Assembly: GCA_041489355.1 (NCBI GenBank)
Contig: JBGPRB010000002.1
Coordinates: 1 to 39,394 of the forward strand
DNA from: Dehalococcoidia bacterium
GTDB taxonomy: Bacteria > Chloroflexota > Dehalococcoidia > Dehalococcoidales > RBG-16-60-22
Direction of reading: 5' to 3'
Length of the DNA stretch: 39,394 nucleotides
The notes beneath the pieces are model-generated. The model was not told the origin of the DNA and searched no databases. It worked only from the letters and a program-made list of their open reading frames with translations. The number at the start of each line of letters is the position of its first letter. Within the stretch, counting starts at the first letter, position 1. Shown here one piece after another: positions 4,788 to 36,360 of the stretch. Position numbers and translations under genes: made by a program.

Positions 4788-4800
4788 AGGGTTATCTTGG

Positions 4801-8577: not shown

Positions 8578-8628
8578 ACAACCGGCTGATTACCTGCGCC
8601 AATTAAATATTGATTCTAACCGTTGACG

Positions 8629-9536: not shown

Positions 9537-9601
9537 GGCTGACCTCCTCTAATATGTTGACTATCTCACGGCAGTTGCCTCTAATTAAGAATATCATCCC
9601 G

Positions 9602-9630
9602 GTTATATCCCTCGCGATAAATGTTGTCAA
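9602..9630 (-). promoter_or_regulatory. Putative promoter on minus strand (TTGACA-17-TATAAC)
   Basis: On the plus strand it reads GTTATA (9602-9607) ... TGTCAA (9625-9630). It points toward the small ORF at 9536. Confidence 0.4.
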
Positions 9631-9754
9631 GCGTAGTAGTTGCCGGCTCTGTTTGCATTTACTTGATGAACTCGCCTTACCTCTGACCCATCTCCAGCCA
9701 GAGTTATCGAAGTGATATTATTTTCCCCTTATCTGGAAAAGGGAGTAACTTGCG

Positions 9755-9827
9755 AAGAGGGGTTCATCCTGAAGATTCACCCTGAAGGGCGCCAGCCCCT
9801 CTTAAAAAAATCTCCCCCTCTCCTGTT
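9755..9827 (+). repeat. Family C hairpin with long loop (AAGAGGGG...CCCCTCTT) + left arm of a family A hairpin (TCTCCCCCTCTCCTGTT)
   Basis: Same order as 6368-6437, but the A hairpin's right arm lies 150 nt away at 9980-9990. Confidence 0.6.
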
Positions 9828-9845
9828 GGGGGTTTTACCCCAAAT

Positions 9846-9877
9846 GTCATTCTGAGGAACGAAGTGACGAAGAATCT
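9846..9877 (+). repeat. Family B repeat (GTCATTCTGAGGAACGAAGTGACGAAGAATCT)
   Basis: Has the conserved GTCATTCT ... AGAATC termini. A related inverted unit (CCCTTCGCTACGCTCAGGGTGACA) lies at 9923-9946. Confidence 0.65.
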
Positions 9878-9971
9878 GTGGGTGGGATTGGCAGTACACA
9901 GATTGTCCCCACCACCCCCAGACCCTTCGCTACGCTCAGGGTGACATGTATACAGTTCTTATGAGGCAGGA

Positions 9972-10019
9972 CTCCTGTTAGGAGAGGGGGACCAAGAGGT
10001 TCACCCTGAAGAGGTGAGG
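9972..10019 (+). repeat. Right arm and tail of the split family A repeat (CTCCTGTT AGGAGAGGGGG ACCAAGAGG ... GGTGAGG)
   Basis: The tail ACCAAGAGG..GTGAGGT matches 22391-22408. Confidence 0.6.
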
Positions 10020-10162
10020 TTAATATCATTCGATATTAGGATAATAATTGAATAATCGAAAACAAAGAGAACCTTGTTATCAGTCTCACATAGAAATTTC
10101 TCTATCCTCACGGTATAATATTATTATCTGCCTTTTACGCAGAGGAAAGAGGCCTGCTCAAT

Positions 10163-11497: not shown

Positions 11498-11588
11498 GGA
11501 GGGGTGTCCGAGTGGTCTATGGTGACGGTCTTGAAAACCGTTTCCCGATTATATCGGGACGTGGGTTCGAATCCCACCCCCTCCGCCA
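11498..11588 (+). tRNA. tRNA-Ser (anticodon UGA), CCA encoded
   Basis: Acceptor stem GGAGGGG/CCCCTCC. Anticodon stem-loop ACGGT CTTGAAA ACCGT. Long variable arm CCCGAT/ATCGGG. T arm GTGGG TTCGAAT CCCAC. Discriminator G followed by CCA. Confidence 0.9.
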
Positions 11589-13033: not shown

Positions 13034-13465
13034 ATGAGCAGAGAGGTAAAAGATTTACAGAAGCAGGTAGAATTTTATACTAATTTACCGTACACGATTA
13101 CCGTCGAACGTCGAGATGACCAGGGCACCTATTACGTGGCAAGATATATCGAGTTACCGGATCTTTTAATGACCGGAGATACGCCTGAAGAAGCCCTCGC
13201 CGAACTGGAGTCAGTCAAGCCCGAATGGATTGAGACCCACCTGGAGCTGGGCAATAAGATGCCGCCGCCATTGAAGGGCCGGCGGTACAGCGGCGAGTAT
13301 CGCCTCCGTATGCAGCCTTCCCTCCACGAAGCCGCAGTATTAATGGCCGAAATGGAAGGTGTCAGCCTGAACCAGTATACAGTGATGGCGCTATCGCGCG
13401 CCGTTGGCCAGGATGAAGTACGGCGGACCAAGCACCGGAAAATTAAATCTATAAAAACTTCCTGA
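13034..13465 (+). CDS. hicB: HicB-family antitoxin with C-terminal RHH-like DNA-binding tail
   Basis: N-terminal HicB fold pattern (YTITVERRDDQGTYYVARYIELPDLLMTGDTPEEALAEL). C-terminal segment SGEYRLRMQPSLHEAAVLMAEMEGVSLNQYTVMALSRAV. Confidence 0.78.
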   Translation: MSREVKDLQKQVEFYTNLPYTITVERRDDQGTYYVARYIELPDLLMTGDTPEEALAELESVKPEWIETHLELGNKMPPPLKGRRYSGEYRLRMQPSLHEAAVLMAEMEGVSLNQYTVMALSRAVGQDEVRRTKHRKIKSIKTS

Positions 13466-22668: not shown

Positions 22669-23298
22669 TTGACCTATTCATTACGCCCTATGGGTAAAGA
22701 GGACCTCGACCAGATAAACGCAATTGACCGCGAAGCATTCCCTACCCAGTGGCCCCCGGCCAACTACCGGCAGGAACTGCAAAATAAGCTCGCCCACTAC
22801 ATTGTTGCCTGCGACGGCACCAGAACTGTAGATGCCCCCATAGTAAAACCGCATAAAAATATACTCGGTTTGTTTTCCAGGATTATGCCATGGGTCAAGC
22901 AGCCTCCTCCCCAGGATGAACCCTTACCACGGGTTAAGCTCCATTACATCGTCGGTTTCTCTGGCATCTGGATGATGGTGGACGAAGCTCACATTACCAA
23001 TATCGCCGTGCGCCAGCAATATCAGGGGATGGGACTCGGAGAGTTGCTGCTCATAGCCACGATTGACCTGTCCAGAGACCTTAAGGCCAGCTTCCTGACA
23101 CTGGAGGTGCGCGCCTCGAATCTCGTGGCTCAGAACCTCTATAGTAAATACGGATTTATTAAAACGGGTGTACGCCGCAGCTACTACCTAGACAATAGAG
23201 AAGACGCCATAATAATGTCCACCGAGAGTATCAAATCAGAATCATTTCAATTACGTCTACAACAGCTGAGGGAAGCCCTGACTAATAAACTCAGCTAG
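22669..23298 (+). CDS. rimI: GNAT acetyltransferase, RimI-like (ribosomal protein S18-alanine N-acetyltransferase)
   Basis: TTG start with GGAG upstream. Acetyl-CoA motif RQQYQGMGLG. It is longer than typical because of an internal insert of about 50 aa. Confidence 0.75.
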   Translation: MTYSLRPMGKEDLDQINAIDREAFPTQWPPANYRQELQNKLAHYIVACDGTRTVDAPIVKPHKNILGLFSRIMPWVKQPPPQDEPLPRVKLHYIVGFSGIWMMVDEAHITNIAVRQQYQGMGLGELLLIATIDLSRDLKASFLTLEVRASNLVAQNLYSKYGFIKTGVRRSYYLDNREDAIIMSTESIKSESFQLRLQQLREALTNKLS

Positions 23299-23437
23299 GC
23301 AACCGCTCGGGATAGCACATTCTCGCTTTTAGTTATTCCCGATTCTTATACCTGCCCGTTTTCTCTAAGTTCATTCAATGGTTATACCTTAGTCGGCGAT
23401 ATAAAGCGAATCAGGGATGATTATATAGCGAGGTTTC

Positions 23438-24898
23438 TTACTTGCTGATAATAATGTTGAAGGAAACCCCCGCGCTCGCGCTATCATTAATGGATGTAAT
23501 GCGAACGTCAGAGAACTTCCCGAGTGCCTCCAGAGCGGTAACGTAACCGACAACTGTGAAGGCGTTGTCAGCTCCACCCGTCATGGTTATCTGGTTTTTG
23601 CCCACTTCGACAGATGTGAAATAGGCTCCAGAGGGGAGGGCATCGGTAACCAGTTTGAGATTATAAGCGAAGTCGCCGCCGGCACTTAAGAAGTATTGAT
23701 ATTCCTGCCTGGCAGTTTCTGTATCAGCAATTACTTTATTTGTTGTGTCTGTAATTTGCTTTGCCTTGTCAGCTAAAAGCGTTGCTTGATTAAGTTCCTG
23801 ATTAAGCCCGGCCAGCTCCGTTTGCAGGCGCGTGGTTTCAGCATCTGTCTGGCTTCTAAGCTGGTTCATGGGAAGTAGCAGTCCCAGGCCAGTTAATACC
23901 GCCAGGAATAAAAGAACAAGTGGTAGTCTTATCCAGCTTTTCCGAATCCCAAACTGACCAGAGAGTATGTTAAGGTTTATGTCGCGGAAGTATGTGCTCT
24001 GGCCATTAGTAGCTGGCTTCATTGGCAGCTTTTTCAAAGCCAGACCGATATTGGTGGCAAACGATGCGGCTGGCAAGTCAGGAGGTAATTTCAACGGCGG
24101 CTTCAGAGGCTCGACGGGGTGTCCGACCTCAGCCGAAATAAGTTCTCTGGTGGCAACATCAGCTGATAATTCTCCGGTCACTAATAAAGATGCAGTAGTA
24201 CTAAGAGGACTCTGGGGGTGATTATTATTATAGAACTCCACCGTCTTTAATAACTCGTCAGCCAATTTCCGTATATTCTCCTCCATGGTCGCTCCCGGCC
24301 CTCTGGGAGAAATAGTATGCATAATCGCCGGCATACCGTCAGCGATAAGAACAATATCAAAACAATCCGACTCCATATTTACTATTATGGCTTCTCTCCG
24401 ATGGGCTACCCTCGCCAACGCCAGCGGATTCAGGTCGATAACGTAAGGCTGTATATCAACCTCTCCCAGTGCCTGTACTAAAACATCGATAGGGTTACGC
24501 GGCACTCCCAGAATGAGGAAACCCGCTTCATCAGCCCCATTGCTGATAGCCTGCCCGCAGAGGTATAACTCTTCGGGCGGCAATAACATTTCTCTCCTGG
24601 CTGCCCGCTGGATGGCCTCGGACAGGGAATCACGTTCCATTCGCGGCAGGGTCAGGATGCGGTGGATAAAGGACAAGCCGGTAAGGCTGGTGATGACACG
24701 CTTTTTGGTAATGCCTGTTGATTTAAATAAAGAATTAATCACCGCCCCGACAACCTTCGGTCGTAGAATAAGTCCGTCCTTGACCAGCCCCGGCGGCAAT
24801 GGCATACTACCCCATTTTTCTACCTCTCTTCCCCTGACAGAGAGGAGCCTGACACTGGTAGAGCTAATATTTAACGTGACATAAGTTCTTCCACTCAT
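23438..24898 (-). CDS. pilM: Type IV pilus assembly protein PilM fused to a PilN-like TM/coiled-coil domain
   Basis: The N-terminal portion of about 320 aa is actin-like PilM. It is followed by an INLN motif, a TM helix (LVLLFLAVLTGLGLLL), a coiled coil and a PilN-like C-terminus. Confidence 0.78.
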   Translation of the reverse strand: MSGRTYVTLNISSTSVRLLSVRGREVEKWGSMPLPPGLVKDGLILRPKVVGAVINSLFKSTGITKKRVITSLTGLSFIHRILTLPRMERDSLSEAIQRAARREMLLPPEELYLCGQAISNGADEAGFLILGVPRNPIDVLVQALGEVDIQPYVIDLNPLALARVAHRREAIIVNMESDCFDIVLIADGMPAIMHTISPRGPGATMEENIRKLADELLKTVEFYNNNHPQSPLSTTASLLVTGELSADVATRELISAEVGHPVEPLKPPLKLPPDLPAASFATNIGLALKKLPMKPATNGQSTYFRDINLNILSGQFGIRKSWIRLPLVLLFLAVLTGLGLLLPMNQLRSQTDAETTRLQTELAGLNQELNQATLLADKAKQITDTTNKVIADTETARQEYQYFLSAGGDFAYNLKLVTDALPSGAYFTSVEVGKNQITMTGGADNAFTVVGYVTALEALGKFSDVRITSINDSASAGVSFNIIISK

Positions 24899-24913
24899 TT
24901 GATAATTAGCTCC

Positions 24914-25486
24914 TTACATGGCAGAGGTGAACTTGGTATAGATAGCTAAACCCAGGCTGGCAGTGACACTCCCAGTTTCTCCTGATGATGTAGGGACCCT
25001 GGTGACACTTAGACTTTCGACGACAAGGCTCTCAAACTCTCCATTTTTCAATTTACTAACAAAGCTGGTCAACTGCGGAAAACTGCCACTGATAGCCATA
25101 TTTATCCGAAACACATAATATCCCTTGCCGATATTGTCTGCTGACCATGGTCTGGTGGACAAGGGAATAGCTTTAACCTCACAGGCATCGGCCAGCTTGA
25201 GAATAGCATTGATGACCTGAGTGCCGTTGATGTCTCTCGGCAGAGCGTTCTGTGCATCAGCCAGGCTAGCCTCTGCCTCAGCCAGTTTCTGCTCCAGGTC
25301 CTGTGGTGGCTCAGGAGTATCGGCAAGTGTCTGAGTAACTTCGGCAATTTGGGATGTCACCGCCTCATTCTTCTGGCGTTGTCTCAGATAGTCCATCCCC
25401 ATGAAGCAATTAACCGCTAGCAGGACAACCAGGGCAATTATTAAAGAGGTGATGATTGACTTGCTTTTCAAAATTTTCTCCTCCAC
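24914..25486 (-). CDS. pilO: PilO-like pilus assembly protein
   Basis: N-terminal TM helix, coiled coil and C-terminal alpha/beta domain. It occupies the pilO position beside pilMN. Confidence 0.6.
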   Translation of the reverse strand: MEEKILKSKSIITSLIIALVVLLAVNCFMGMDYLRQRQKNEAVTSQIAEVTQTLADTPEPPQDLEQKLAEAEASLADAQNALPRDINGTQVINAILKLADACEVKAIPLSTRPWSADNIGKGYYVFRINMAISGSFPQLTSFVSKLKNGEFESLVVESLSVTRVPTSSGETGSVTASLGLAIYTKFTSAM

Positions 25487-25517
25487 TTGGGTTTCAATGT
25501 TTTTATTACCGATGGCA

Positions 25518-25922
25518 TCATGAGCTTATCTGCCACTGACTAACGGTGACATTTCCACTTATTATTTGAACGATAGCCTGTATAGTCTCACCATCGGCAA
25601 CGGACACAACCTCATAAGTCGAATTATCTGCCAGGGTAACCGTAATATCCGGTATGATGCCATTAATCGTCTCTCCCAGCTGATAGTTGACACTGTCCCC
25701 GGGTGTAGACATCTCGCCAGCAAGGTCACCATAGGTCAGGTCCCAGATAGCATGTTCCACACCGGAATCGCCGGAGTACTGCTGGCTTATCGCCTCTCCA
25801 TAAATTCGCGAGCCTATCAGTCCGTCGCCGGCGTGTCCGAGAAACGGGACTATTACCAGCCCACCAAAGGCAACTATCGCCAGTACTATAACGAGGGCTT
25901 GCCCTTTTTCGCCGTTCTTCAT
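25518..25922 (-). CDS. Minor pilin-like protein lacking Glu5 (PilX-like N-terminus)
   Basis: MKNGEKGQ/ALVIVLAIVAFGG hydrophobic N-terminus. Located within the pilin gene block. Confidence 0.5.
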   Translation of the reverse strand: MKNGEKGQALVIVLAIVAFGGLVIVPFLGHAGDGLIGSRIYGEAISQQYSGDSGVEHAIWDLTYGDLAGEMSTPGDSVNYQLGETINGIIPDITVTLADNSTYEVVSVADGETIQAIVQIISGNVTVSQWQISS

Positions 25923-25928
25923 TCCTGC

Positions 25929-26378
25929 TCACCCCTCCGTGGGACGGAGGTAGACTTTATACGTTTCATTTTCACTCACCCCCCACCTGCCCGCAGGTGA
26001 CGAGGTAATATCCATAGTGATGTAGCGGTCTTGAACAGAGAAATTTATGGTAGTAATATTATTTGCAAGCGTCCTGTTGATGGTGCCGGTGCTGCGGACA
26101 AGGTCGGTGCCTGCCAGCGTATAACTGATTGAGGAGTCATCGGGCAGGGTGAGGACCAGCTCATCACCACCGGTAGCCGATTGCGCCATCTGCCCGTCAA
26201 GGTTGACCCAGTGAGCTACGTTTTGCAGCTCATGCAGGGCTGTCACCCTGTCATTACCGTATTCAGGAATAGTGACCACCTGATGGAGAGCCTCCCCCAG
26301 GCCGCTAAAGATAACTCCCATAATAGCGGTGGCGATAAGCAATTCAACCAGGGTAAATCCCTGCTGTCCCTTCATCAT
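25929..26378 (-). CDS. Minor (pseudo)pilin with prepilin-type N-terminal methylation motif
   Basis: MMKGQQG/FTLVELLIATAIMG. Confidence 0.75.
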   Translation of the reverse strand: MMKGQQGFTLVELLIATAIMGVIFSGLGEALHQVVTIPEYGNDRVTALHELQNVAHWVNLDGQMAQSATGGDELVLTLPDDSSISYTLAGTDLVRSTGTINRTLANNITTINFSVQDRYITMDITSSPAGRWGVSENETYKVYLRPTEG

Positions 26379-26788
26379 CGCTTCACCTTATAGTCCTCAA
26401 TAATTAATAAGGCTTGTGCATCCCTCGAGATAGTCGCCGTCACTTTCTGGATGTTATCATCATCAGCATCAGGGACAAGGGTAACGGCTACGGATATACT
26501 GTAGTTATCCGTTGTATCAATGACAGGATAGGTAGTAGCAACGGGGTCATAGGGATAGCCCTTGATATACTCCATCTGAGTCCGGGCCAGGCTCTGTGCC
26601 GTAACTTCCTGGTCGCTCTCACTCACCGCCAGTGCACCGGTTGACATTGCCACGACGAAGGCAACGAGCGCCACCCCGATGACAGCAATAGTTATTAAGG
26701 ATTCGACGAGTGCAAGCCCCGTCTCGTCTTTAAATACATTGAGTTTAATGAGCCATTGTTGCGTCTTCCTTGCCATCTTATCACCCAT
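26375..26788 (-). CDS. Minor (pseudo)pilin with long leader
   Basis: ...KDETG/LALVESLITIAVIG with Glu at +5. ATGA overlap with the next gene. Confidence 0.65.
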   Translation of the reverse strand: MGDKMARKTQQWLIKLNVFKDETGLALVESLITIAVIGVALVAFVVAMSTGALAVSESDQEVTAQSLARTQMEYIKGYPYDPVATTYPVIDTTDNYSISVAVTLVPDADDDNIQKVTATISRDAQALLIIEDYKVKR

Positions 26789-26797
26789 CCCCGCCGG

Positions 26798-28009
26798 TTA
26801 GTGTAAAGACCTGAGTATGGAGTACAGCGGCGTTATCATGGAAGCGCCCATAAAAGCGACCACCAGTCCGACCACTACAATTAAAGCCGGTTCTATCACT
26901 GATATCATGGCGTGAATCGACTGTTCAACCCTGCGCTCATAATAGTCGGCTATTTTTACCAGTGTTGTATCCAGGGTGCCCGTCATCTCTCCTATATTGG
27001 CCATCTCTATCAGAAGGTGAGGAAATACACTATTTTTAGCCATCGATTGCGATAGACTCCGTCCCTGAACCAGCTTACCTCCGACCTCCTCCAGTGCCTG
27101 GCGGATGATTATATTCCCCACGGTTTTAGTGGCAATATTCATTATCTGCGGCATGGGAAGTCCGGCTTTCAGCAACATTGAAGCTGTCTGGCAGAAGCGA
27201 CCGATACTACGCTGGGTACTGATAGCGCTGATTAGCGGAATTTTTAATATTAGCTTGTCCAGAGTTAGTTTCCCGGCTGGCAGCCTTATATAACCAAAAA
27301 CCAGGATAATCAGAGCGCCCAGCCCACCGATAAAATAAAACTTATAGTCTCTGGAAAAATTGCCCATAACCAGGAGTAACTTTGTTATCCACGGTAGTTC
27401 AGCACCAAGCGAGGTGTAGAGTCGGGTTAGCGATGGCAGCACTATGGTTGTCAGCAGGATAAATACCCCGAACGCCATCAGCAGCACCACTGCAGGATAT
27501 ATCAAAGCATGTCCGACTCTTTTTGCGGCGGCTTTCTCTGTCTCCAGATAGCCAGCCATGCGCTTCAGAGCTACCTCAAGGTTACCCGTGGCTTCGCTGG
27601 CTCTAATCATCTGGCAATAAATATCGGAAAATACCTGGGGATATCTGCTCAGAGCCTGGGATAAAGAGTTGCCTTCCTGAAGGTCCCTGGCCAACCCTTT
27701 AAGGATTTTCCTCAGGGCAGCCGAAGGAGCCTGTTCTTCAAGCAGTTGCAGAGCCGTCAGGATAGGAATTCCGGCCTCAATCAGGGCGGCAAGCTGATGT
27801 GAAAAATCAATAACCTGCTGAGTTTTAACTCCGAACAAACTTGGCAGCAACCGGCGTAAATTCAGGCTGGGGCTTATTTCTCTCAGCTTAAGGACGCGGT
27901 GATACCCAGCCCGGTACAGGGCATCCTCCGCCATCCTTTCGGAGGTGGCATCAATGGTGCCCTGGATAATCTTTTTATCGATAGTATAAACACTATACCA
28001 ATACGCCAT
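26798..28009 (-). CDS. pilC: Type IV pilus platform protein PilC (GspF family)
   Basis: Two GspF repeats and three TM segments. Start set at ATG 28009 (AAGGA upstream), which overlaps the pilB end by 17 nt. Confidence 0.9.
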   Translation of the reverse strand: MAYWYSVYTIDKKIIQGTIDATSERMAEDALYRAGYHRVLKLREISPSLNLRRLLPSLFGVKTQQVIDFSHQLAALIEAGIPILTALQLLEEQAPSAALRKILKGLARDLQEGNSLSQALSRYPQVFSDIYCQMIRASEATGNLEVALKRMAGYLETEKAAAKRVGHALIYPAVVLLMAFGVFILLTTIVLPSLTRLYTSLGAELPWITKLLLVMGNFSRDYKFYFIGGLGALIILVFGYIRLPAGKLTLDKLILKIPLISAISTQRSIGRFCQTASMLLKAGLPMPQIMNIATKTVGNIIIRQALEEVGGKLVQGRSLSQSMAKNSVFPHLLIEMANIGEMTGTLDTTLVKIADYYERRVEQSIHAMISVIEPALIVVVGLVVAFMGASMITPLYSILRSLH

Positions 28010-29744
28010 AATTTCCTTTTGAATGATTCCGGGTATCGACACTAACAGAGTACACGCTGCGCAGTACCTCACTCATTGAAGTAATACCCTGGGCGACTTT
28101 CAGCATTCCGTCATGTCTCATGCTGACCATGCCTTCCTTGATAGCCTGCCTTCTGATATCGCTGGCACTGGCATTACCAAGCAGCATCGCCCGGCTTTCA
28201 TCACTTACAGGCAATACTTCAAAAATTCCCGTCCGTCCCCGGTAGCCAGTGTGGGCGCAGAGATTACACCCCACCCCTTTATAAAAGACAGGCGGCGGTT
28301 GTTCCATCTCTTCCTCGTAGGCTGTTAACTCAGCCCCAGATGGTTGGTACGTTGTCCGGCAGCCGGTGCAGATGCGACGAACCATGCGTTGCGCTACAAC
28401 ACCAACCAGCGTCGGAGGGAAAAGAGATGGTTCATCACACATATTTATCAGCCGTAAAAGCACGCTGATGGCATCATTGGCATGAACTGAAGACAGCACT
28501 AGGTGTCCGGTGATGGCAGCCTGCACGGCTGTTGTCGCTGTTTCTCTATCGCGAATCTCGCCCAGAAGGATAACATCGGGGTCCTGGCGCATCATTGCTC
28601 GTAGACCGCTGACAAAAGTAATACCAGCTTTGGCATTGACCTGCGTCTGGCTGATATCTGTGAACCGGTATTCAACAGGGTCCTCAATGGTTAAAATATT
28701 ACGCTCTTTATTATTAAGCTGGGTAATCGATGTGTACAGGGTGGTTGTTTTACCCGAGCCGGTGGGACCCCCCACCACTATCATGCCGAAGGGACAGTTC
28801 AACATCGCCTGGTATTTCTCCAGAGCATAAGGCTGGAAACCTAACTCAGGGAGATTGAAAATAAATTGAAACTTATCCAGAATCCGTAAAGTAACCCGTT
28901 CGCCGTACACTGTATCCGTGGTAGCAACACGAACATCAATATCCCTTTCCCCTGTCCTGAAGGTAAATTGACCATCCTGAGGACTTTTCTGTTGAGCAAT
29001 ATCCATCTTAGCCAGTATTTTGAGCCTGGATACCAGTTCTTCGTTGGCATTGAGAGGTAGTGAGTGTATATCATGTAGAATACCATCAATGCGGTAGCGA
29101 ACTCGTAGTCTGTTTTCCTGCGGTTCAAAATGAATATCTGAAGCCCTATCCCTGACAGCCTGTTCGATGAGCAAATCCAGACTTTCCGCAATAGGTGTCG
29201 TGGCATTTAGCTCCGAGCTAACCTCGGCGTCTCCGATAAGGGCAGGTACTGATTTGCTTACCTGTCTCTCTATTTTTTCGCCTGACCTGTAGTTCAGGTC
29301 AATTGCCCATTCAATATCAGCCGGGACGCCGACGGCTACCTCAATCCTCATCTCAGTTTGAACTTTGAGGTCCTCGATCGTCTGTATATCCTCCGGGTCA
29401 GCCATCACCACGACCAGCGAATCACCGATGACATCCAGCGGGATTAGGGTATGTTTTCGGGCGATGTCCTCAGGAATTAATCTCAGGGCATCGGGGTGAA
29501 CCATGTGTCTCTTCAGGTCGATTAGAGGAAAATTCAGCTGGATGCTGATGGCCTGTGCCAGCTCCTCAGCTTTGAGTAGCCCCCGGGTCACCAGGATATT
29601 ACCGAGTCTGCCCTTCTGAATCTGCTGTAGCTGCAGAGCTTCCTCCAGTTGTTCAGCGGTAATAAACCTCTGCTCAACCAGGATTTCACCCAGACTCTTT
29701 CTTTGTATCTTGGTGATAACTCCCTTTGATTCTTGCCTTTTCAT
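27993..29744 (-). CDS. pilB: Type IV pilus assembly ATPase PilB (GspE family) with MshEN-type N-terminal domain
   Basis: Walker A GPTGSGKT and tetracysteine CTGC...CNLC. N-terminal tandem RLGxxLVxxGLLxxxxLxxALxxQ motifs. Start set at ATG 29744, which forms ATGA with the upstream stop; the ORF-track start at 29840 would overlap by 100 nt. Confidence 0.92.
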   Translation of the reverse strand: MKRQESKGVITKIQRKSLGEILVEQRFITAEQLEEALQLQQIQKGRLGNILVTRGLLKAEELAQAISIQLNFPLIDLKRHMVHPDALRLIPEDIARKHTLIPLDVIGDSLVVVMADPEDIQTIEDLKVQTEMRIEVAVGVPADIEWAIDLNYRSGEKIERQVSKSVPALIGDAEVSSELNATTPIAESLDLLIEQAVRDRASDIHFEPQENRLRVRYRIDGILHDIHSLPLNANEELVSRLKILAKMDIAQQKSPQDGQFTFRTGERDIDVRVATTDTVYGERVTLRILDKFQFIFNLPELGFQPYALEKYQAMLNCPFGMIVVGGPTGSGKTTTLYTSITQLNNKERNILTIEDPVEYRFTDISQTQVNAKAGITFVSGLRAMMRQDPDVILLGEIRDRETATTAVQAAITGHLVLSSVHANDAISVLLRLINMCDEPSLFPPTLVGVVAQRMVRRICTGCRTTYQPSGAELTAYEEEMEQPPPVFYKGVGCNLCAHTGYRGRTGIFEVLPVSDESRAMLLGNASASDIRRQAIKEGMVSMRHDGMLKVAQGITSMSEVLRSVYSVSVDTRNHSKGNYGVLV

Positions 29745-30898
29745 GTTCTTTTTACCACGCTGCGTGAAACGCTGTCTTTGGTTATTTCCGTGGCGATAAT
29801 ACGCTGAGCCAACTCCTTTATGGAACAGGCCATGGGGCAATCGTCATTATTAATTATTGTGGCCTGATTACCCGGTGATGATGTCATGGCACCAGCCTCA
29901 TAAGGTATAATTCCCCATATGCTCACGGCAATGTTAGGTTCAATATATGATTTTATGCTGGGGAGTTCCTTTTGGGAGAAGGTTCCTACCGGATCAGTAA
30001 CCACAGCGCCGATTCGTTTTATAGAGATGCCCAGGAAACGCAAGACGGTAATGGTGGACTTCACTCCTGTCAGGGCTTCAGTGGTGTAGTCACTGACTAT
30101 AATGGCGAGGTCGCATTGCGAAAGAAACGACCTGGTAAGAGCCGTCGGTTGAAACGGCAGATCGACCAGAAAATAATCGGTAGCCTCTCTGAACCTGTCA
30201 AGCGGAAAATCAATATCTTCGGGTATCGTGTCCCCGGAAGGCTGTTGGATACGTATCACACCTACGCCTGTTTCGTGAACCACCAATGCTGGCTCCATAA
30301 CACGACGACCAGGAGCATCTGCAGGCATCTGTACGAGCCGACGGATTGCACTTTTAGGTTTGATTCCGAGACGCTCAGAAATACTACCTTCATAGGGACA
30401 AAGGTCAACGGCGATAACCTGTTTCCCCATTTGCGCCAAAGCAATGGCTACGTTGACCACAACAGTCGTTGTCCCTACTTTCTCTTTAGAGCCAATAAAG
30501 ACGACCATTGGGGAACGAGCATCAGCTTTCTGGGCCAGGAGACCGTCTACCTTGCTGACGATTTCTGAAGGAGTAGCGGGCTTGGTGAGATAATCGTCCG
30601 CACCCATACTTAATCCATTGGCGATATCAGTTCGCTGTGCTTTGCCCGAGAGCATAAGAATGAGTGGTTGCGGCGTTTGTATTTCAGCCCGCAAACGATG
30701 GCAGACCTCCAGACCGTCAATACCTGGTAACATTACATTCAGAATAATGAGGTCAGGCACCTCCTTCCGGGCTATTTGTAGCCCTTCCAGGCCGTTTGAC
30801 GTGGTGAATACCTGATAGCCACGTTTTTTCAGTACATACTCCATCAGCCGAATGGCAATTGGGTCATCCTCGATAACCAGTATCCTCTTACCCATCAT
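29741..30898 (-). CDS. TadZ/CpaE-like protein: receiver-like domain (Asp to Asn at acceptor) + ParA/MinD-like domain with degenerate Walker A
   Basis: The receiver domain is otherwise canonical (EDD, TKP), but LIILNVMLPGIDG carries N54 where the phospho-Asp is expected. The P-loop reads GSKEKVGTTT versus the MinD-type SGKGGVGKTT. Confidence 0.75.
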   Translation of the reverse strand: MMGKRILVIEDDPIAIRLMEYVLKKRGYQVFTTSNGLEGLQIARKEVPDLIILNVMLPGIDGLEVCHRLRAEIQTPQPLILMLSGKAQRTDIANGLSMGADDYLTKPATPSEIVSKVDGLLAQKADARSPMVVFIGSKEKVGTTTVVVNVAIALAQMGKQVIAVDLCPYEGSISERLGIKPKSAIRRLVQMPADAPGRRVMEPALVVHETGVGVIRIQQPSGDTIPEDIDFPLDRFREATDYFLVDLPFQPTALTRSFLSQCDLAIIVSDYTTEALTGVKSTITVLRFLGISIKRIGAVVTDPVGTFSQKELPSIKSYIEPNIAVSIWGIIPYEAGAMTSSPGNQATIINNDDCPMACSIKELAQRIIATEITKDSVSRSVVKRT

Positions 30899-30899
30899 C

Positions 30900-33629
30900 T
30901 CACCTGTTATCCTGTTTCAGAGGTATCGTGAAACTGAAAGTGCTGCCGGCTCCTTCGACACTTTCTACCCATATGCGTCCACCATGGGCTTCGATAATAC
31001 GCTTTGAGATATAAAGGCCAAGGCCCAACCCTCCAACCCTGGTGGTGCTTTTTACCTGGTAAAATTTTTCAAAAAGGGATTTTCTAGCCTCTTCAGCAAT
31101 CCCAATACCCTGGTCAGTAACCTGTACCAGCAAATCGTTACCTCTGACTTCAGCACTGACATCGATGCTACCGCCATCGTTGCTAAATTTAATGGCGTTA
31201 TCAAGAAGATTGAACATCACCTGCCTTAATCGCTGGCTATCTGCTTCAATATCGAGTAGTTGTAAGGGTATATTTTCCTTTATCACTATATTTTTCTGCC
31301 TGGCCACACTATTAAAATCCCGTATGGTACCTTGGAGTAAATCTGCTATCGCGACCCGTTCCTTATTGATATCGAAACGTTCCGATTCGATTGGTGAAAT
31401 GTCAAGTAGTTCATCAACCAGCTTGCGAAGGTGCTCGCTCTGGCCGGCGATAATGGTCAGAAATTCTTTCTGCGTCTCAGTATTTGATACATCACCTTCG
31501 AGTAATAACTTGGTAAAGGCCAAAACTGAGTGCAGCGGAGCTCGCAGTTCATGCACGATATTAGACATGAACTCAGATTGCATTGGGTCGAGATTGTACC
31601 TCTTTTCCGCAGCCTTGGTCATAGCTTCTTCCAGGACTGCCTTGGCGGCTTCGGCTTCCTCTCTGGCGATTCTGGATTCTTCGTTAGCCCTGGCAACGGC
31701 CTTAGCTGAGGCAGTCCTGACTTCCTCAGCCTCCTCTCGTGCCAGTCTGGCTTCTTCATTGGCTTTAGCCACGGCTTTATTTGAAGCTACCTTGGCAGCC
31801 TCGGCTTCCTCTCTGGCCAGTTTGACCTCTTTATCGGCCTTAGCTTTCTCCTTAGCCGAGATTGTTTTAATTTCTTCGACTTCTTCCAGCGCCAGCCGGG
31901 TTTCTTTATTGGCCTTGGCAACGGCTGTGGCCGAAGCTATCCTGGTTGCATCAGCTTCCTCTCGTGCCAGCCTAGCTTCTTCAGCGGCTTTAGCTGCAGC
32001 TATCTTGGCAGCTTCAGCTTCCTCTCTGGCCAACTTGGCCTCCTTGTTAGCCTTGACAACGGCTTTGTTTGAGACTGTCTTGGCGGCTTCAGCCTCTTCT
32101 CTGGCTAGTCTGACCTCTTCACTGGCTTTGGCGATAGCCCTGGCTGAGGTTGCTTCGGCTTCCTCTCTAGCGAGCTTAGCTTCTTTAGTGGCTTTAGTTA
32201 TGGCCTTGGCTAAGGTCGCTTCGGCATCCTCCTGTATCAGTCTGGCCTCTTCTTCAGCTTTAGCCACAGCCTTGGCCGAGGCGGCCTTAATTTCCTCAGC
32301 TTCCTCTCGGGCCAGCTTGGCTTCTTCATTGGCCTTGGTGACAGCTCTAGCCGAGGCGGCCTTGACTTCTCCAACCTCTTCTCTGGCCAGCCGGGTTTCT
32401 TCATTGGCCTTGGCCAGGCTTGCTTCGGCATCTTCCTGTGCCAATCTTGCCTCTTGTTTGGCTTTAGCCACCGCTTTAGCCGAGGTTTTCTTAACTGTCT
32501 CGGCATCCTCTCGGGCCAGTCTAGCTTCTTCACTGGCCCTGGCTAAGACGGCCTTGGTTTCCTTAGCTTCCTCACTGGCCTTGGCTAAAGCAGCCTTGGC
32601 TTTATTAGCTTCCTCCCTGGCCAGCCTGGATTCTTCATTACCTTGAGACAAGACGCTTTTGATTTTCTCAGCTTCCTCCCTGGCCAGTCTGGCTTCTTCA
32701 TGGGCTTTAGCTGCAGCTTTAGTTGAAGCTATCTTGGCGACTTCTGCATCCTCTCTTGCCAGCTTGGCTTCCTCACTGGCCTTGGCTATGATTTTGGCTG
32801 ATGTTACTTTAACTGTTTCGGCATCCAATCGGGCTAACTTAGTCTCTTCCTCTACCCTCTTGCGTTCGGTAATATCGCGTAATGAAGCCAAGTAGGCAGT
32901 TTCTCCCTGGTACTTTATTTCCACCACTTTTACTTCCGCCACAAGATTTTCCCCGTCCCCACGGACTATGCCTAGCTCGGTCTTACCACCTTCAATCGCC
33001 TGCAACGAATCAATCGATTCTCCAAGCAGCTGTCCTGCTTTACAACCAAAGAGGGATTCCACAGCCGGATTGGCAAAACATACTGCTCCCTTCTGGTCCA
33101 CAATGATGATACCGTCAGGGTAACTCTTTATTATGTTAATAAATTGGGCTTCGCTGGACTCTGACTTCGACACAGACCACTGCTGAGCGATGGCATGGTA
33201 GATAGAGCGCGCCAACAGGTCTCTATTCAACTTTCCCTTGACCAAGCATTCCTGGGCGCCCTTTTTCAGTGCCTCAATCTTATCCTTTTCGTTATCGAGC
33301 GGGGACAATATGATGATAGGTATGCCGCCAACTTGAGCGCGCACCTGAGTTAAAGCCTGAAGGCCGCGACCATCCGGTACGCTCTGGTCCAGCAGGAGTA
33401 TATCAATACCTCCTCTGGTAAGACGCTCGATTCCCACGGATAGTCTATCGGCGTACTCCAGAGTGAAGGCCCCCATTACTGCCTGGGTTACCATCTTGCG
33501 TATCAGATAGGCTTCTTTATGGTCACCCGTGATTAGCAGGACCTTTATCGGTTTAATATCGGTTTTTAACCTGACGGCCGGCTCTGAGCTAAGACTTTTT
33601 AGGGGAATCCTGTTTTGGATCTTCTGCAT
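30900..33629 (-). CDS. Soluble hybrid sensor histidine kinase: REC - PAS - 416-aa repeat/coiled-coil - HisKA - HATPase_c
   Basis: REC with LLLDQSVPDG. PAS ending in LRDITERK. H-box SNIVHELRAPL. N box NLLDNAIKFS, G1 DQGIGI and G2 GGLGLGL. No TM segment. Confidence 0.85.
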   Translation of the reverse strand: MQKIQNRIPLKSLSSEPAVRLKTDIKPIKVLLITGDHKEAYLIRKMVTQAVMGAFTLEYADRLSVGIERLTRGGIDILLLDQSVPDGRGLQALTQVRAQVGGIPIIILSPLDNEKDKIEALKKGAQECLVKGKLNRDLLARSIYHAIAQQWSVSKSESSEAQFINIIKSYPDGIIIVDQKGAVCFANPAVESLFGCKAGQLLGESIDSLQAIEGGKTELGIVRGDGENLVAEVKVVEIKYQGETAYLASLRDITERKRVEEETKLARLDAETVKVTSAKIIAKASEEAKLAREDAEVAKIASTKAAAKAHEEARLAREEAEKIKSVLSQGNEESRLAREEANKAKAALAKASEEAKETKAVLARASEEARLAREDAETVKKTSAKAVAKAKQEARLAQEDAEASLAKANEETRLAREEVGEVKAASARAVTKANEEAKLAREEAEEIKAASAKAVAKAEEEARLIQEDAEATLAKAITKATKEAKLAREEAEATSARAIAKASEEVRLAREEAEAAKTVSNKAVVKANKEAKLAREEAEAAKIAAAKAAEEARLAREEADATRIASATAVAKANKETRLALEEVEEIKTISAKEKAKADKEVKLAREEAEAAKVASNKAVAKANEEARLAREEAEEVRTASAKAVARANEESRIAREEAEAAKAVLEEAMTKAAEKRYNLDPMQSEFMSNIVHELRAPLHSVLAFTKLLLEGDVSNTETQKEFLTIIAGQSEHLRKLVDELLDISPIESERFDINKERVAIADLLQGTIRDFNSVARQKNIVIKENIPLQLLDIEADSQRLRQVMFNLLDNAIKFSNDGGSIDVSAEVRGNDLLVQVTDQGIGIAEEARKSLFEKFYQVKSTTRVGGLGLGLYISKRIIEAHGGRIWVESVEGAGSTFSFTIPLKQDNR
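31602..32849 (-). repeat. About 18 tandem, diverged 75-nt (25-codon) coding repeats: EEARLAREEAEaaKxaSAKAVAKAN
   Basis: Residues 261-676 of the kinase. Unit starts fall at residues 261, 286, 311, 332, 353, 367, 392, 410, 435, 460, 482, 504, 529, 550, 575, 600, 625 and 650. Confidence 0.9.
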
Positions 33630-34081
33630 TCACATTCACCTTTTCCATTTTTCATGGCGCTCAAGGCCGATTTATTTGTCAAGACACTGCTACGCTTTCG
33701 AATAAAGCGCATTATCCAGCTTTAGCTCTTTAATCGCTATTCAAACACCATTTTCATTCAGTTTGGTCCGCTATTATTGATGACGGACATCCCCATAAAA
33801 AACTACATATTAGTCATACGGCTGTATGCCTTGTTCATGCCGCTCATTCATCCAGCTCCAACAGCTAAAAAACACAAGCCCATGAACTCCCAGCCTTGAC
33901 TCGCCGTACTTTTATATTTTTAGTCTTATCACCGACGAGTACAGCATCTGATGGAAAATAGGTAACCAGAAGCTGTACTCTGCCATCTTCCACGGGGCCA
34001 TCACACGCCGTGACGGCCCCGGCCGCCGTTGCCAGGTTATTATCACAGACCCCTATACAGCACTGCTTAACCTACTATTAA

Positions 34082-34435
34082 TTAGTGTTGCGTAACCAGC
34101 CCCGTAATATCGCACGTATAATTTGCACTGGTGGTGGCTGAGCGTAAGTAGTTCGGGTATAAGCCTTGGCCAATTGGGAAATCCGACATAGTGGCTGTCG
34201 CGGTAGTAGTAGCGTTCACCGAACTCATTATTAGCTGTGCCATCATCACGTCCATAGCTGTCTGGATAGTTACCAGCTCAGCCTTATCTGCCGCTGTCTC
34301 ACCCCTGTTACTGATTCCGGCGAAGTTGGGCAGAGCCACAGCCATCAATACTCCCAGAATGGCGATGACGATTACCAACTCGATTAAGGTAAAACCCCCG
34401 TTATTCCGATGTATCCTTCTGATTAACCCTTTCAT
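34082..34435 (-). CDS. Type IV (major) pilin
   Basis: MKGLIRRIHRNNGG/FTLIELVIVIAILG class III signal. AAGGAGG RBS. 117 aa. Confidence 0.8.
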   Translation of the reverse strand: MKGLIRRIHRNNGGFTLIELVIVIAILGVLMAVALPNFAGISNRGETAADKAELVTIQTAMDVMMAQLIMSSVNATTTATATMSDFPIGQGLYPNYLRSATTSANYTCDITGLVTQH

Positions 34436-34565
34436 TTGTGTAACCTCCTTGTATTTTTGGATATTGTTTCATTTCTTACATTTCTCTCTTCTTACAATAT
34501 TCACCTCCTGTCTTACTTGGCTATGCGGTTCCCTGACTGCTACTATAGTGAAGAACCGCCCGATA

Positions 34566-34796
34566 TTAATCATTTTCTGACCTAAATTGGCCAATCGAGC
34601 TTATTCGGTTAGCCTCATGATTTAATCTATCGACATCATCCTCGGTAAAGAGTCTCCACCTTCTCCTATCTCTGTATTCGGGTAATTTCAAGTTCCCCTG
34701 TCTGAGCCACCTGAGTAAGGTAGTCCTGCTAATACCAACCATACGGCAAGCCTCGGAGGTTCTATAGTATTTCTGACCATTTAAGGCTATGGGCAT
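34566..34796 (-). CDS. Small HTH DNA-binding protein (MerR/excisionase-like HTH)
   Basis: Start moved to ATG 34796 (AGGAGG 7 nt upstream). YYRTSEACRMVGISRTTLLRWLRQG ... WRLFTEDDVDRL. Confidence 0.6.
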   Translation of the reverse strand: MPIALNGQKYYRTSEACRMVGISRTTLLRWLRQGNLKLPEYRDRRRWRLFTEDDVDRLNHEANRISSIGQFRSEND

Positions 34797-34857
34797 ATTA
34801 CTAATCCTCCTGTCTTCTCCATACACATTAAACAGGCTTGCTCTATTTTGATACAGG

Positions 34858-34886
34858 TTGACATAGTTTGGTCGTATTAATATTAA
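34858..34886 (+). promoter_or_regulatory. Strong consensus-like promoter TTGACA-17-TATTAA
   Basis: The -35 is at 34858-34863 and the -10 at 34881-34886. It lies about 360 nt upstream of the GAF-HD-GYP start. Confidence 0.45.
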
Positions 34887-35247
34887 TACCACTGCGACTG
34901 TTTCTGGTGAACAATACTAACCCTAGTTTTAACTGGAGGATTTACCCTAAAATAACTCAACTCTCAGATTCCCCAATTGATATCAAGCCATCAACCGGCC
35001 AGGTTCAATTTATTTCTGGCTGAGTCTATATTTCTCCTTTAGGCTCTCTTTTTTGATGGATATTGAAGAGAATATGGACCGTAAGGATATTTACTTAATC
35101 TTTGGTTCTTTCTGGCGCTTATTTATGGTTCATTTACCCCTTTGCTGCTATTAATAACATTATTGAAACCTGTGAAAACCCGGCTTGAGATGGCGAAAAA
35201 ACGTATCTGGCCATTCAGCTATATTTGACAGCTGATAAGGAGACAGG

Positions 35248-36360
35248 ATGCAGACTCTTCGGAAAAAAGAACCAGGAACAAATAAAAGTTTTGACCTGCT
35301 CAATAAAATATGGAGGGAAGTAGGTTCCGCCAAGCAGTTAGATACTATAATTACCAGTATCACGCAGATGGCCCGATATGCCCTCAATGCCTCGTTCTCA
35401 TCAATGTATCTTCTTGACGAAAAAAGTCATGAGCTGTTCTTGAGATGTACCAATGGTCCGATAGAAAATCAAATCAGGCGATTTCAAATGAATAATCAGG
35501 CTGGGATTACCGGCTGGGTAGCCCAGAACGGCCAGCCATTAATAGTCAATGATGTTAACAAAGACCCGCGCTTTAATAAATTAGTTGACGAAATTTATGG
35601 TTTCCCTACGAAGTCAATAATTTGTGTCCCGCTGATCGTTCACCGTGAAGTTATCGGTATCATCAAAGTAATTAATAAAGAGGGAGGCACTGATTTCGGC
35701 TGGCAGGACCTGCAAACCATGATGGCGGTAGCCGCAACGGCGGCGCTGACGGTAGAAAATCTCAAATTAAACGAATGCTTACAGGATTCTTATAAAAGTA
35801 CCGTCAACGCATTGGTGTCATTATCTGATACCAAGGAAATCACCGGTGGCGGCCACTCAAAACGCGTCGCCCAATATGCCCTTATGGGAGCAACTAATCT
35901 TTCTCTCTCGGAAGAAGAGAAACGAAATATTGAGTATGCGGCCATTCTTCATGACATCGGTAAACTCGCTATCCCCGATAGCATATTGAACAAGTCCGGT
36001 ACCTTAACTCACGAGGAATGGAGAGTATTGCGCAGTCACCCGCAGATAAGTTTCAATCTACTTAAATTAATCCCCTTTCTTGTAGAAGCCAGCCGGCTCA
36101 TTCTCTGTCACCACGAGAGGTATGACGGTATGGGGTATCCCTATGGGCTAAAAGGGGAAGCTATACCTCTTGGAGCTCGCTTGATAGCAGTCGCAGACGC
36201 TTTTGACAATATGACTACGGAGCACGCTTACCGCGCGGCAATCAGTACCAGAGACGCCTTTGTAGAGTTAGGTAAATGCGTGGGTAGTCAATTCTGCCCT
36301 GTTGCGGTAAAAGCATTCTACGCCGGCTTTCTCCGCACTCACCCTTCAGCCAAGCAATAA
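35248..36360 (+). CDS. GAF domain + HD-GYP domain protein (putative c-di-GMP phosphodiesterase)
   Basis: AAGGAG RBS. GAF (GITGWVAQNGQPLIVNDV..DPRF). HD-GYP signatures HSKRV, ILHDIGK and HHERYDGMGYPYG. Confidence 0.85.
   Translation: MQTLRKKEPGTNKSFDLLNKIWREVGSAKQLDTIITSITQMARYALNASFSSMYLLDEKSHELFLRCTNGPIENQIRRFQMNNQAGITGWVAQNGQPLIVNDVNKDPRFNKLVDEIYGFPTKSIICVPLIVHREVIGIIKVINKEGGTDFGWQDLQTMMAVAATAALTVENLKLNECLQDSYKSTVNALVSLSDTKEITGGGHSKRVAQYALMGATNLSLSEEEKRNIEYAAILHDIGKLAIPDSILNKSGTLTHEEWRVLRSHPQISFNLLKLIPFLVEASRLILCHHERYDGMGYPYGLKGEAIPLGARLIAVADAFDNMTTEHAYRAAISTRDAFVELGKCVGSQFCPVAVKAFYAGFLRTHPSAKQ

Follow-up and report, generated by a model that had tools for sequence, protein, structure and literature searches.

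A conserved REC-MinD-like gene ahead of pilB in a probable type IVa pilus operon of an uncultured Chloroflexota bacterium

A 39,394-nucleotide (nt) stretch of contig JBGPRB010000002.1 from the Dehalococcoidia assembly GCA_041489355.1 (hereafter the window) carries on its minus strand a type IV pilus operon in which a gene for a receiver (REC) domain joined to a MinD-family domain, here referred to as the REC-MinD-like gene, stands immediately before pilB, the gene of the extension ATPase. Our best explanation is that, taken as a whole, the locus probably encodes an ordinary monoderm-type type IVa pilus (T4aP) of an uncultured Chloroflexota bacterium whose REC-MinD-like protein would act as a dedicated cofactor of PilB, by analogy with the TadZ/CpaE proteins of Tad pili. 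In architecture, nucleotide-site variant and gene position the protein is CpaE/TadZ-like, a putative family member only. The same gene order recurs in approximately 50 metagenome or metagenome-assembled genome (MAG) loci (28-97% identity), and the arrangement is therefore not due to chance. Such a conserved REC plus CpaE-like partner of PilB, with two receiver states and an embedded repeat-helix kinase, is common in nature and apparently undescribed: a full-text literature search, of incomplete coverage, returned no description of a REC-MinD-like protein combined with a T4aP.

The minus-strand unit from 33629 to 23438 consists of nine genes, whose starts, supported by ribosome-binding sites (RBS), lie at 33629, 30898, 29744, 28009, 26788, 26378, 25922, 25486 and 24898. 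Their order is kinase, REC-MinD-like, pilB, pilC, three pilin-like genes, a pilO-like gene and a pilM-pilN fusion, and the eight junctions measure 1, -4 (ATGA), -17, 9, -4 (ATGA), 6, 31 and 15 nt, the first ATGA being the overlap of the REC-MinD-like gene with pilB. An earlier annotation of this DNA (the original prediction) had given the same coordinates and junction lengths, which our open reading frame (ORF) map reproduced exactly, but had counted ten genes where we count nine. The structural genes, in one unit behind the kinase and REC-MinD-like genes, are apparently co-translated. Upstream, the stop codon of the major pilin gene pilA (34082) is separated from the kinase start (33629) by a gap of 452 nt; a gene for a 76-amino acid (aa) helix-turn-helix (HTH) protein precedes pilA, and a GAF-HD-GYP gene is divergent from this pair, all in agreement with the earlier annotation, whose domain calls were likewise all recovered in Pfam and NCBIfam profile searches.

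The REC-MinD-like protein, its relatives and the adjacent kinase

The N-terminal 125 residues of the REC-MinD-like protein match Response_reg at 97 bits and are 40-45% identical to the receivers of OmpR-family regulators, and the C-terminal part matches only generic MinD/ParA-type Pfam models (AAA_31, CbiA, ParA, BcsQ, MipZ). The receiver retains the acidic pair (DD11-12), S84 and K106, and an alignment of 113 family members showed conservation of the acidic pair, Ser84 and Lys106. The phospho-acceptor position, however, is occupied by Asn54, and because of this replacement the window's receiver, judged by its sequence, cannot accept a phosphoryl group. Asn was also found in all 45 full-length homologues (at least 340 aa) within ranks P0001-P0046, all at least 55% identical, and in a few more distant ones (P0048, P0051, P0053, P0056 and P0059); most other distant homologues have Asp. 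In the ATPase domain the Walker A motif reads GSKEKVGTTT, with the signature Lys kept and the P-loop Lys absent, and the pattern K-x-x-V-G-T-T-T, in which Thr replaces the P-loop lysine, was present in 110 of the 113 family members. The protein is not a DNA-binding response regulator of the ordinary kind, and it is not a plain MinD either; these two identities could have overturned the earlier TadZ/CpaE-like call.

Both Pfam and an AlphaFold2 model (predicted local distance difference test score 75.6) indicate the two-domain plan of TadZ/CpaE, a receiver-like N-terminus followed by a MinD/ParA-like C-terminus. The top Foldseek match of the model by E-value was 3FKQ (E 1.5e-11, TM-score 0.42-0.45, root-mean-square deviation 14.7), barely ahead of PleD and receiver-domain entries. 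This entry is a two-domain protein with receiver-like and MinD-like parts, which we take to be the TadZ of E. rectale. The ATPase domain alone superposed best on archaeal MinD (A. fulgidus MinD TM-score 0.82; FlhG 0.70). Six CpaE proteins from Tad loci all lacked the P-loop lysine (KGGTGSST, RGGVGAST, RGGVGVTT, RGGVGTTT, RGGAGTTT and KGGVGTST), in contrast to the GKT, with the P-loop Lys kept, of E. coli MinD, one plasmid ParA, A. fulgidus MinD and Thermus Soj. A tblastn search of 72,556 plasmids with the full protein was swamped by OmpR-type regulators and was repeated with the ATPase domain only, which matched 19 records, 15 of them from Sinorhizobium or Skermanella. The two plasmid matches inspected, one from each genus, were both the CpaE-position gene of a genuine Tad locus. 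On Skermanella rosea pSR-1 (L094, 1033-2271) this gene, evidently cpaE, is annotated as 'cellulose synthase operon protein YhjQ/BcsQ' between CpaD and CpaF. BLASTP against S. medicae CpaE gave 27% identity over 203 aa, spanning the receiver end, the domain junction and the ATPase domain. When the ATPase domain alone was searched exhaustively against 1.84 billion representative sequences, 109 of the 147 newly found matches listed were two-domain proteins of at least 340 aa; the P-loop Lys was absent from 118 of 123 readable Walker A motifs among the listed matches, and Response_reg scored above cutoff in 10 of 10 matches sampled.

Among eight relatives' contigs that were looked up (47-67% identity) PilB was encoded directly downstream of the REC-MinD-like protein in every case, and the order was REC-MinD-like, PilB (with its MshEN domain), PilC, two small pilins, a variable third protein, PilO-like and PilMN. 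A metagenome scan seeded with the ATPase domain yielded 62 loci, and PilB came immediately next in 38 of the 39 family loci with at least 300 nt of downstream sequence, commonly with a stop/start overlap between the REC-MinD-like gene and pilB. The operon is kept even in divergent members (L146, L147, L149, P0124 and P0128), whose ATPase domains are approximately 28-32% identical to that of the window and whose receivers are 48-65% identical; in P0124 and P0128, at approximately 32% identity, PilB again comes directly downstream. The homologues are named Chloroflexota by their sources. In this family a single locus, L127 (Ga0172364_10004627, 4139-6065), has the kinase and REC-MinD-like genes but no PilB within 4.9 kb.

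A separate contig scan with a full-length alignment latched onto the generic receiver motif, and 77 of its 80 loci were unrelated response regulators; the three useful ones were Dehalococcoidia MAGs in which a stand-alone receiver of approximately 130 aa, with Asp, lies directly before PilB (MshEN) (L004 6995-7399, L005 2781-3191, L006 2938-3330). These receivers are 58-60% identical to the receiver domain of the window. Since a stand-alone receiver holds the same slot in these Dehalococcoidia, the pairing of a receiver with PilB would seem to be older than the MinD-like domain. Two further loci differ in the genes ahead of pilB. L098 (6540-8042) carries a KaiC-like double-ATPase gene together with a GAF kinase and a single receiver ahead of the REC-MinD-like gene; in archaea, type IV filament motors are accompanied by the KaiC-like FlaH (Denise et al. 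2019). L163 (21-755 and 825-2006), a distant family member, has two tandem MinD-like genes before PilB.

The gene ahead of the REC-MinD-like gene encodes a kinase that we regard as soluble because no hydrophobic segment was found in it; its N-terminal REC keeps the acceptor Asp (LLLDQS). The Pfam matches and the junctions bear out that a kinase is embedded in the operon, as originally predicted, but its stop codon lies 1 nt ahead of the REC-MinD-like start, and the partner to which the kinase is directly coupled is not the assembly ATPase, as had been claimed, but the REC-MinD-like gene. Between PAS and HisKA lies a region of approximately 425 residues rich in A, E, K and R, with the repeat consensus ~EEARLAREEAEAAKxxSAKAVAKAN. 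If continuous, this helix would form an unusually long spacer for a kinase.

The family falls into two cleanly separated subtypes, named here after the receiver's acceptor residue. In the Asn subtype, to which the window belongs, the kinase was directly adjacent in 9 of 9 loci and had the order REC-PAS-A/E/K/R-rich repeat-HisKA-HATPase; the repeat was present in all Asn-subtype kinases, whose length (704-984 aa) varies with the number of repeat units, and PilT followed pilMN in neither of two loci. In the Asp subtype 10 of 25 loci had a kinase at a distance of up to 2.5 kb, in many cases separated by an additional single receiver gene, and PilT followed pilMN in 6 of 6. The repeat was absent from four kinase ORFs checked beside Asp-type regulators, two of which are cut by contig ends. 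Contrary to intuition, a kinase invariably accompanies the very form that cannot be phosphorylated (metagenome loci L099-L151).

The pilus machine and its type

The structural genes include the features of a T4aP: a PilB-type ATPase, a PilC with two T2SSF stretches, PilM and PilN together with a weakly matching PilO, and class III prepilins with Glu5. PilB scored 533 bits on the T4aP model TIGR02538 (below its equivalog cutoff of 676), 509 on GspE and 250 on ComGA, and the closest solved proteins were Thermus PilF (484 bits), Geobacter PilB (460) and Myxococcus PilB (430). PilC, encoded by one gene, scored 309 bits on GspF, 287 on PilC and 156 on ComGB. The N-terminal domain of PilB is of MshEN type, which is characterized by tandem 24-residue RLGxxLVxxGxI...L...Q motifs; the second motif, RLGNILVTRGLLKAEELAQAISIQ, is readable in the translation, the cyclic di-GMP (c-di-GMP) motif model NF053729 was matched at 59 bits (cutoff 38), and the domain is predicted to bind c-di-GMP.

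Prepilin-type N-termini were found in four proteins, with Glu5 missing only in the last. The leader of the major prepilin is MKGLIRRIHRNNG and its mature form starts with FTLIELVIVIA. Minor pilin 1 has a hydrophobic N-terminal helix and is conserved in relatives. Pilin-like protein 3, whose N-terminus is presumably PilX/GspK-like, has 134 aa here compared with 229-445 aa in relatives, and it may form a variable module of tip or adhesin type that the window's lineage has lost or keeps in minimal form. Some of the longer relatives show faint MAM, bactofilin or ice-binding-like matches. The PilO-like protein has an N-terminal transmembrane segment and its position is conserved in relatives. In the PilM-PilN fusion an actin-like PilM domain is followed by one transmembrane segment at residues 325-343 and a PilN domain; among Protein Data Bank (PDB) sequences, the PilM proteins of Myxococcus and Thermus come closest to the PilM part. 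Fusions of PilM with PilN also occur in clostridial clusters.

A Tad/type IVc pilus was considered and rejected, as the TadA-type model scored only 43 bits, a single PilC carries both T2SSF stretches, and the 117-aa pilin has the signal G/FTLIE. A Com pilus was set aside as well: ComGA and ComGB scores are well below those for PilB and PilC, and PilM/N are present. The affinities of PilB and PilM likewise do not favour the competence-like machine that had been suggested, although the secretin-less operon with a PilM/N/O sub-complex described in the original prediction was confirmed by Pfam and NCBIfam.

PilD, PilT and the secretin PilQ are missing from the window. No secretin, PilT or A24 peptidase was detected by Pfam among its large ORFs, and a tblastn search of the window with PilD and PilT of the relative L098 matched only pilB itself, which supports the earlier report of these absences. 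A Secretin domain was found neither in the window nor in eight annotated relatives. Since monoderm T4aP lack outer-membrane parts (PMC10191384; PMC6916266) and Chloroflexota are increasingly regarded as monoderm (bioRxiv 10.1101/2025.08.19.671072), the lack of a secretin is expected. In relatives, PilT is encoded directly after pilMN (L002, L086, L098 and 6 of 6 Asp-subtype metagenome loci), together with PilD in L098; because the same operon carries these genes elsewhere, their absence here is a feature of the locus or lineage and no sign of a different machine. The lack of a secretin, the PilM-PilN fusion and the missing PilD and PilT had been thought to mark a distinct machine, a view that these comparisons do not sustain. 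We infer that the genome must carry its prepilin peptidase gene, and any pilT, outside the window.

A possible role at the pilus motor and its alternatives

On the model of TadZ/CpaE with TadA/CpaF, the REC-MinD-like protein would be a dimeric scaffold that binds ATP but hydrolyses it poorly. At the PilC/PilMN platform it would recruit the extension motor or license it, or else it would determine where machines are formed, and its receiver domain would subject this step to control by a two-component system. Nearby kinases probably phosphorylate the receiver in the Asp subtype; in the Asn subtype the adjacent kinase probably acts by docking or by means of the receiver at its own N-terminus. c-di-GMP would provide a second input: the MshEN domain of PilB would sense it, and the divergent GAF-HD-GYP enzyme would reduce its local level. 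We further propose, tentatively and with less than even confidence in the proposal as one piece, that TadZ/CpaE-type scaffolding ATPases are not exclusive to Tad pili, that a PilB-side regulator of Chloroflexota gained, or kept from an ancestor, a CpaE-type domain to yield a kinase-controlled T4aP motor switch, and that the family captures a shift from a phospho-receiver (Asp) to a TadZ-like pseudo-receiver (Asn), the latter hard-wired to the repeat-helix kinase. If this is true, the family could show the origin of the atypical receiver of TadZ and the role of TadZ-like proteins at the motor.

TadZ/CpaE is reported to bind ATP with low hydrolysis, to localise early and to recruit Tad components (Denise et al. 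2019; PMC12637624; 2026 preprint). The protein studied here shares with A. actinomycetemcomitans TadZ and Caulobacter CpaE the receiver-fold N-terminus and MinD/ParA-like C-terminus, the loss of the P-loop Lys with retention of the signature Lys, and a gene immediately upstream of the pilus ATPase gene; a link to a histidine kinase also has its counterpart in the dependence of Caulobacter CpaE localisation on PleC (PMC12637624). It differs in having as its partner a T4a PilB with PilC and PilM/N/O rather than TadA with TadB/TadC, and in its canonical receiver, the acceptor Asp of which is kept in the sister subtype. TadZ has been called uniquely Tad-associated (2026 preprint), its profiles recognise components of archaeal systems but, among bacteria, no type IV filament system other than Tad, and tadZ was initially forbidden in the T4aP model of Denise et al. 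(2019). Reviews assign TadZ and PilMNO to separate machine types (PMC10191384, PMC6916266), and a large conserved family with a TadZ-like protein and PilM/N/O on a T4a PilB means that the two are not mutually exclusive.

Several observations weigh against a TadZ/CpaE-like PilB cofactor. The link between the REC-MinD-like protein and PilB is drawn from gene order, and the metagenome loci are phylogenetically non-independent, so that their counts describe lineages and overstate independent events. The MinD-like domain is dispensable in some lineages, as the Dehalococcoidia relatives have only the stand-alone receiver before PilB, and a protein that has lost the P-loop Lys might no longer bind nucleotide at all. 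A hidden Markov model (HMM) of the family scored CpaE proteins at 70, 63, 55, 48, 33 and 18 bits, compared with 65 for archaeal MinD, 52 and 36 for ParA, 45 for Soj and 27 for E. coli MinD, and when the Walker A region was removed archaeal MinD ranked first; a phmmer search of PDB with the ATPase domain found MinD and Soj but not 3FKQ. Of five CpaE N-domains scanned on Response_reg, four scored 17-22 bits and one had no match, versus 97 bits for the window, whose receiver is canonical by sequence apart from the acceptor, unlike the atypical receiver of TadZ, with the Asp still present in the sister subtype. P0137 (L161/L162), a REC-MinD-like protein with KGGVGTTT and an ATPase domain 27-28% identical, is encoded ahead of a single receiver gene with no pilus genes in the neighbourhood, which indicates that the wider REC-MinD-like family is not pilus-specific. 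The divergent adjacency of the GAF-HD-GYP gene is retained only in the close relatives L100-L103 (at least 78% identity). NCBIfam and PDB sequence searches of the ATPase domain gave only weak MinD/ParA/BcsQ matches, which decide neither for nor against TadZ. Of the original TadZ/CpaE-like assignment, then, the two-domain architecture and the CpaE-type Walker A motif stand, but the protein is not a typical TadZ, given its 97-bit receiver, an ATPase domain not distinguished from archaeal MinD by sequence scores and relatives that in some cases are not pilus-linked.

If the REC-MinD-like gene were instead a genuine orthologue of TadZ/CpaE, taken over from a Tad locus in recent times, the operon would be a T4a/Tad chimera and the protein would perform the function of TadZ itself, that of a phosphorylation-independent polar landmark hub. 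The architecture, the Walker A variant and the place beside the motor gene are all shared with TadZ/CpaE, Chloroflexota carry Tad loci (PMC7332563; PMC4877987), and the Asn acceptor resembles a degenerating receiver. The neighbours of the gene are a T4a PilB, a single PilC, PilMN and a T4a-type pilin, with no tadA/cpaF, TadB/TadC or Flp. We consider such a capture unlikely, as the association is old and broad in the phylum (approximately 28-32% ATPase-domain identity) and thus not recent, the receiver is canonical and kept at 63-65% identity in divergent members whose ATPase domain is at 28%, the stand-alone receiver in the same Dehalococcoidia slot suggests that the receiver-PilB partnership came first, and the family HMM scores do not group the ATPase domain with CpaE apart from archaeal MinD. 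The same stand-alone receivers (L004-L006) could instead mean that the receiver alone regulates PilB, in the manner of PilG/PilH or cyanobacterial PixG, and that the MinD-like domain is a degenerate dimerisation or membrane-tethering module with no nucleotide and no TadZ-like role. The receiver is the most conserved part of the protein, the P-loop Lys is gone and GG is changed to E/K in the window's subtype, and PilB-binding regulators of receiver type are known (PMC11656802). This explanation too seems doubtful to us, since conservation across the family extends to the signature Lys, the Thr-rich P-loop and further elements of the MinD fold, the P-loop lysine is likewise absent from all six CpaE examined, and TadZ with an atypical Walker A is reported to keep ATP binding (Denise et al. 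2019).

That the operon builds a Com pseudopilus for DNA uptake, or a pseudopilus like that of a type II secretion system (T2SS), instead of a surface T4aP appears improbable. The major pilin is short, the window has no PilT, the pilins give weak N-terminal matches to ComGC/ComGE/ComGF and GspG/H/I/J, PilC scores slightly higher on the GspF than on the PilC model, and the PilM-PilN fusion mirrors GspL (PMC10191384). The pilin matches, however, span only the shared N-terminal helix, PilB reaches 533 bits as a T4a PilB versus 250 as ComGA and carries MshEN, and sister loci continue the same operon with PilT; PilM/N/O-type genes are present here, whereas a review table lists none for Com pili and credits their gain to the T4aP branch, and T2SS are reported to be restricted to diderm species (PMC10191384). 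Least probable of all, and in our judgement very improbable, is that the kinase and the REC-MinD-like protein form an unrelated signalling pair, for example in cell division or positioning, that merely happens to lie ahead of a pilus operon. A link to pilus genes is missing in some family members (P0137) and the kinase content upstream varies, but the REC-MinD-like gene is found immediately before pilB in 38 of 39 loci, often overlapping it, and this holds to approximately 30% identity.

A cofactor of PilB in a T4aP can be compared with several other known systems. PilR is a sigma-54 enhancer-binding, DNA-binding regulator and PilS a membrane kinase; as in PilS-PilR, histidine kinase and response regulator genes lie here beside pilin and pilus genes, but the kinase is soluble, with a REC-PAS-repeat helix, and the regulator has no DNA-binding domain. 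MinD/FlhG (FleN) share the fold, and the family HMM rates archaeal MinD as high as CpaE, but they have a canonical KGGxGKT Walker A, no receiver and no T4aP linkage. In PilG/PilH (Pil-Chp), cyanobacterial PixG/PATAN-REC and Xanthomonas DrdR a receiver is proposed to act directly on PilB/PilT and not on DNA; these systems lack a MinD-like domain, use CheA-type kinases and are not translationally coupled to pilB. The monoderm T4aP of Firmicutes (Streptococcus sanguinis, Clostridium perfringens/difficile) also have clustered genes and few minor pilins and no secretin or outer-membrane parts (PMC6916266, PMC10191384), and C. perfringens PilB2 has a c-di-GMP-binding MshEN (PMC11656802), but a REC-MinD-like gene or an embedded kinase before pilB is absent from their descriptions (PMC6916266, PMC11656802, PMC10191384), and the host here is a member of Chloroflexota.

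TadZ, CpaE, MinD and ParA-like partners go unmentioned in a 2024 review of PilB cofactors (PMC11656802), and the Chloroflexota pilus literature that we found covers Tad clusters only (PMC7332563; PMC4877987). The original prediction had allowed that this gene order might be a described, common pilus subtype; it proved to be common in Chloroflexota metagenomes, and in the literature covered, which was incomplete, no published description was found. How the motor of type IV pili comes to be recruited and activated is an open question (PMC11656802), as is the role of TadZ/CpaE at the Tad machine (PMC12637624). The phosphorylatable and pseudo-receiver forms offer a natural comparison for the function of receiver-like domains, and the locus would bring two-component and c-di-GMP signals to bear on the motor itself, in a phylum that is abundant in the environment and little studied. 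Annotation pipelines name REC-MinD-like genes variously 'response regulator', 'CpaE' or 'MinD-like', and Tad-detection rules that rely on a tadZ match could misfire on them.

Feature coordinates, upstream region and flanking genes

Table 1. Positions, strands and supporting matches of the pilus locus features in the window.
Feature	Coordinates	Strand	Evidence
GAF + HD-GYP protein, predicted c-di-GMP phosphodiesterase	35248-36360	+	Pfam HD_5 131 bits, GAF 65 bits
MerR/Xis-type HTH protein, 76 aa	34566-34796	-	Pfam HTH_17, MerR_1
Major prepilin PilA, 117 aa	34082-34435	-	Pfam N_methyl 39 bits; NCBIfam PilA/GspG N-terminal matches
GC-rich hairpin 3' of pilA, no clear U-tract	33993-34021	-	RNA fold -34.5 kcal/mol, z = -3.9
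Soluble sensor kinase, 909 aa: REC, PAS, repeat helix, HisKA, HATPase_c	30900-33629	-	Pfam
Repeat region in kinase, approximately 16 imperfect 25-aa units, 75-nt DNA period	31590-32864	-	Tandem Repeats Finder, period 75
REC + CpaE/TadZ-like MinD-family domain, 385 aa	29741-30898	-	Pfam Response_reg 97 bits + AAA_31/CbiA/ParA
PilB, type IVa extension ATPase, 583 aa from ATG 29744	27993-29744	-	Pfam T2SSE 411 bits, MshEN 69 bits
PilC platform protein, 403 aa from ATG 28009, one gene	26798-28009	-	Pfam T2SSF 195 bits, two stretches
Minor pilin 1, class III signal G/LALVESL, weak PilV-like	26375-26788	-	NCBIfam PilV 21.8 bits
Minor pilin 2, G/FTLVELL	25929-26378	-	Pfam N_methyl 35 bits; weak ComGF/GspJ matches
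Pilin-like protein 3, KGQ/ALVIVL, no Glu5	25518-25922	-	Hydrophobic N-terminus; no Pfam match
PilO/GspM-like bitopic protein	24914-25486	-	Pfam PilO 19 bits (below cutoff of 22), NCBIfam GspM 19 bits
PilM-PilN fusion, 486 aa	23438-24898	-	Pfam PilM_2 + PilN above cutoffs

In the region upstream of the operon, pilA is preceded by a strong RBS (AAGGAGG), and the HTH gene starts at ATG 34796 behind AGGAGG, although its mechanical ORF extends to 34892. The HTH gene adjoins pilA in L001, L002, L084, L098 and many metagenome loci, in an order that varies (pilA comes before the HTH gene in L002). The HD (LHDIGK) and GYP (DGMGYP) motifs are intact in the translation of the GAF-HD-GYP gene, which is a plausible local input rather than a core part, because its adjacency is limited to close relatives. 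None of 200 shuffled sequences was as stable as the hairpin in the 452-nt gap, which is possibly a transcript-stabilising or partial terminator element. Rfam gave no match at E<=1 over 33500-35350, including the approximately 360 nt between the hairpin and the kinase start, and no riboswitch, c-di-GMP class included, in the whole window at the gathering threshold. Matches to promoter and terminator consensus sequences in 23000-35400 did not exceed shuffled expectation.

The flanking genes on both sides are, by the Pfam matches of their large ORFs, housekeeping genes. One flank encodes DnaX, RecO, LysRS, SerRS, an MFS transporter, a Na/Ca exchanger, HicB, a solute-binding protein, RadC, a peptidase, a release factor, EndoV, an SDR and a GNAT protein, and the other YebC, RuvC and RuvA. 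An interval of approximately 1.5 kb (8600-10050) contains only small ORFs (43-90 aa, one of them Cys-rich), and repeats or elements sought there yielded nothing of note. The HicB-family antitoxin-like gene (13034-13465, plus strand) has no obvious HicA partner among the large ORFs, and a tRNA-Ser(TGA) gene lies at 11498-11588 on the plus strand.

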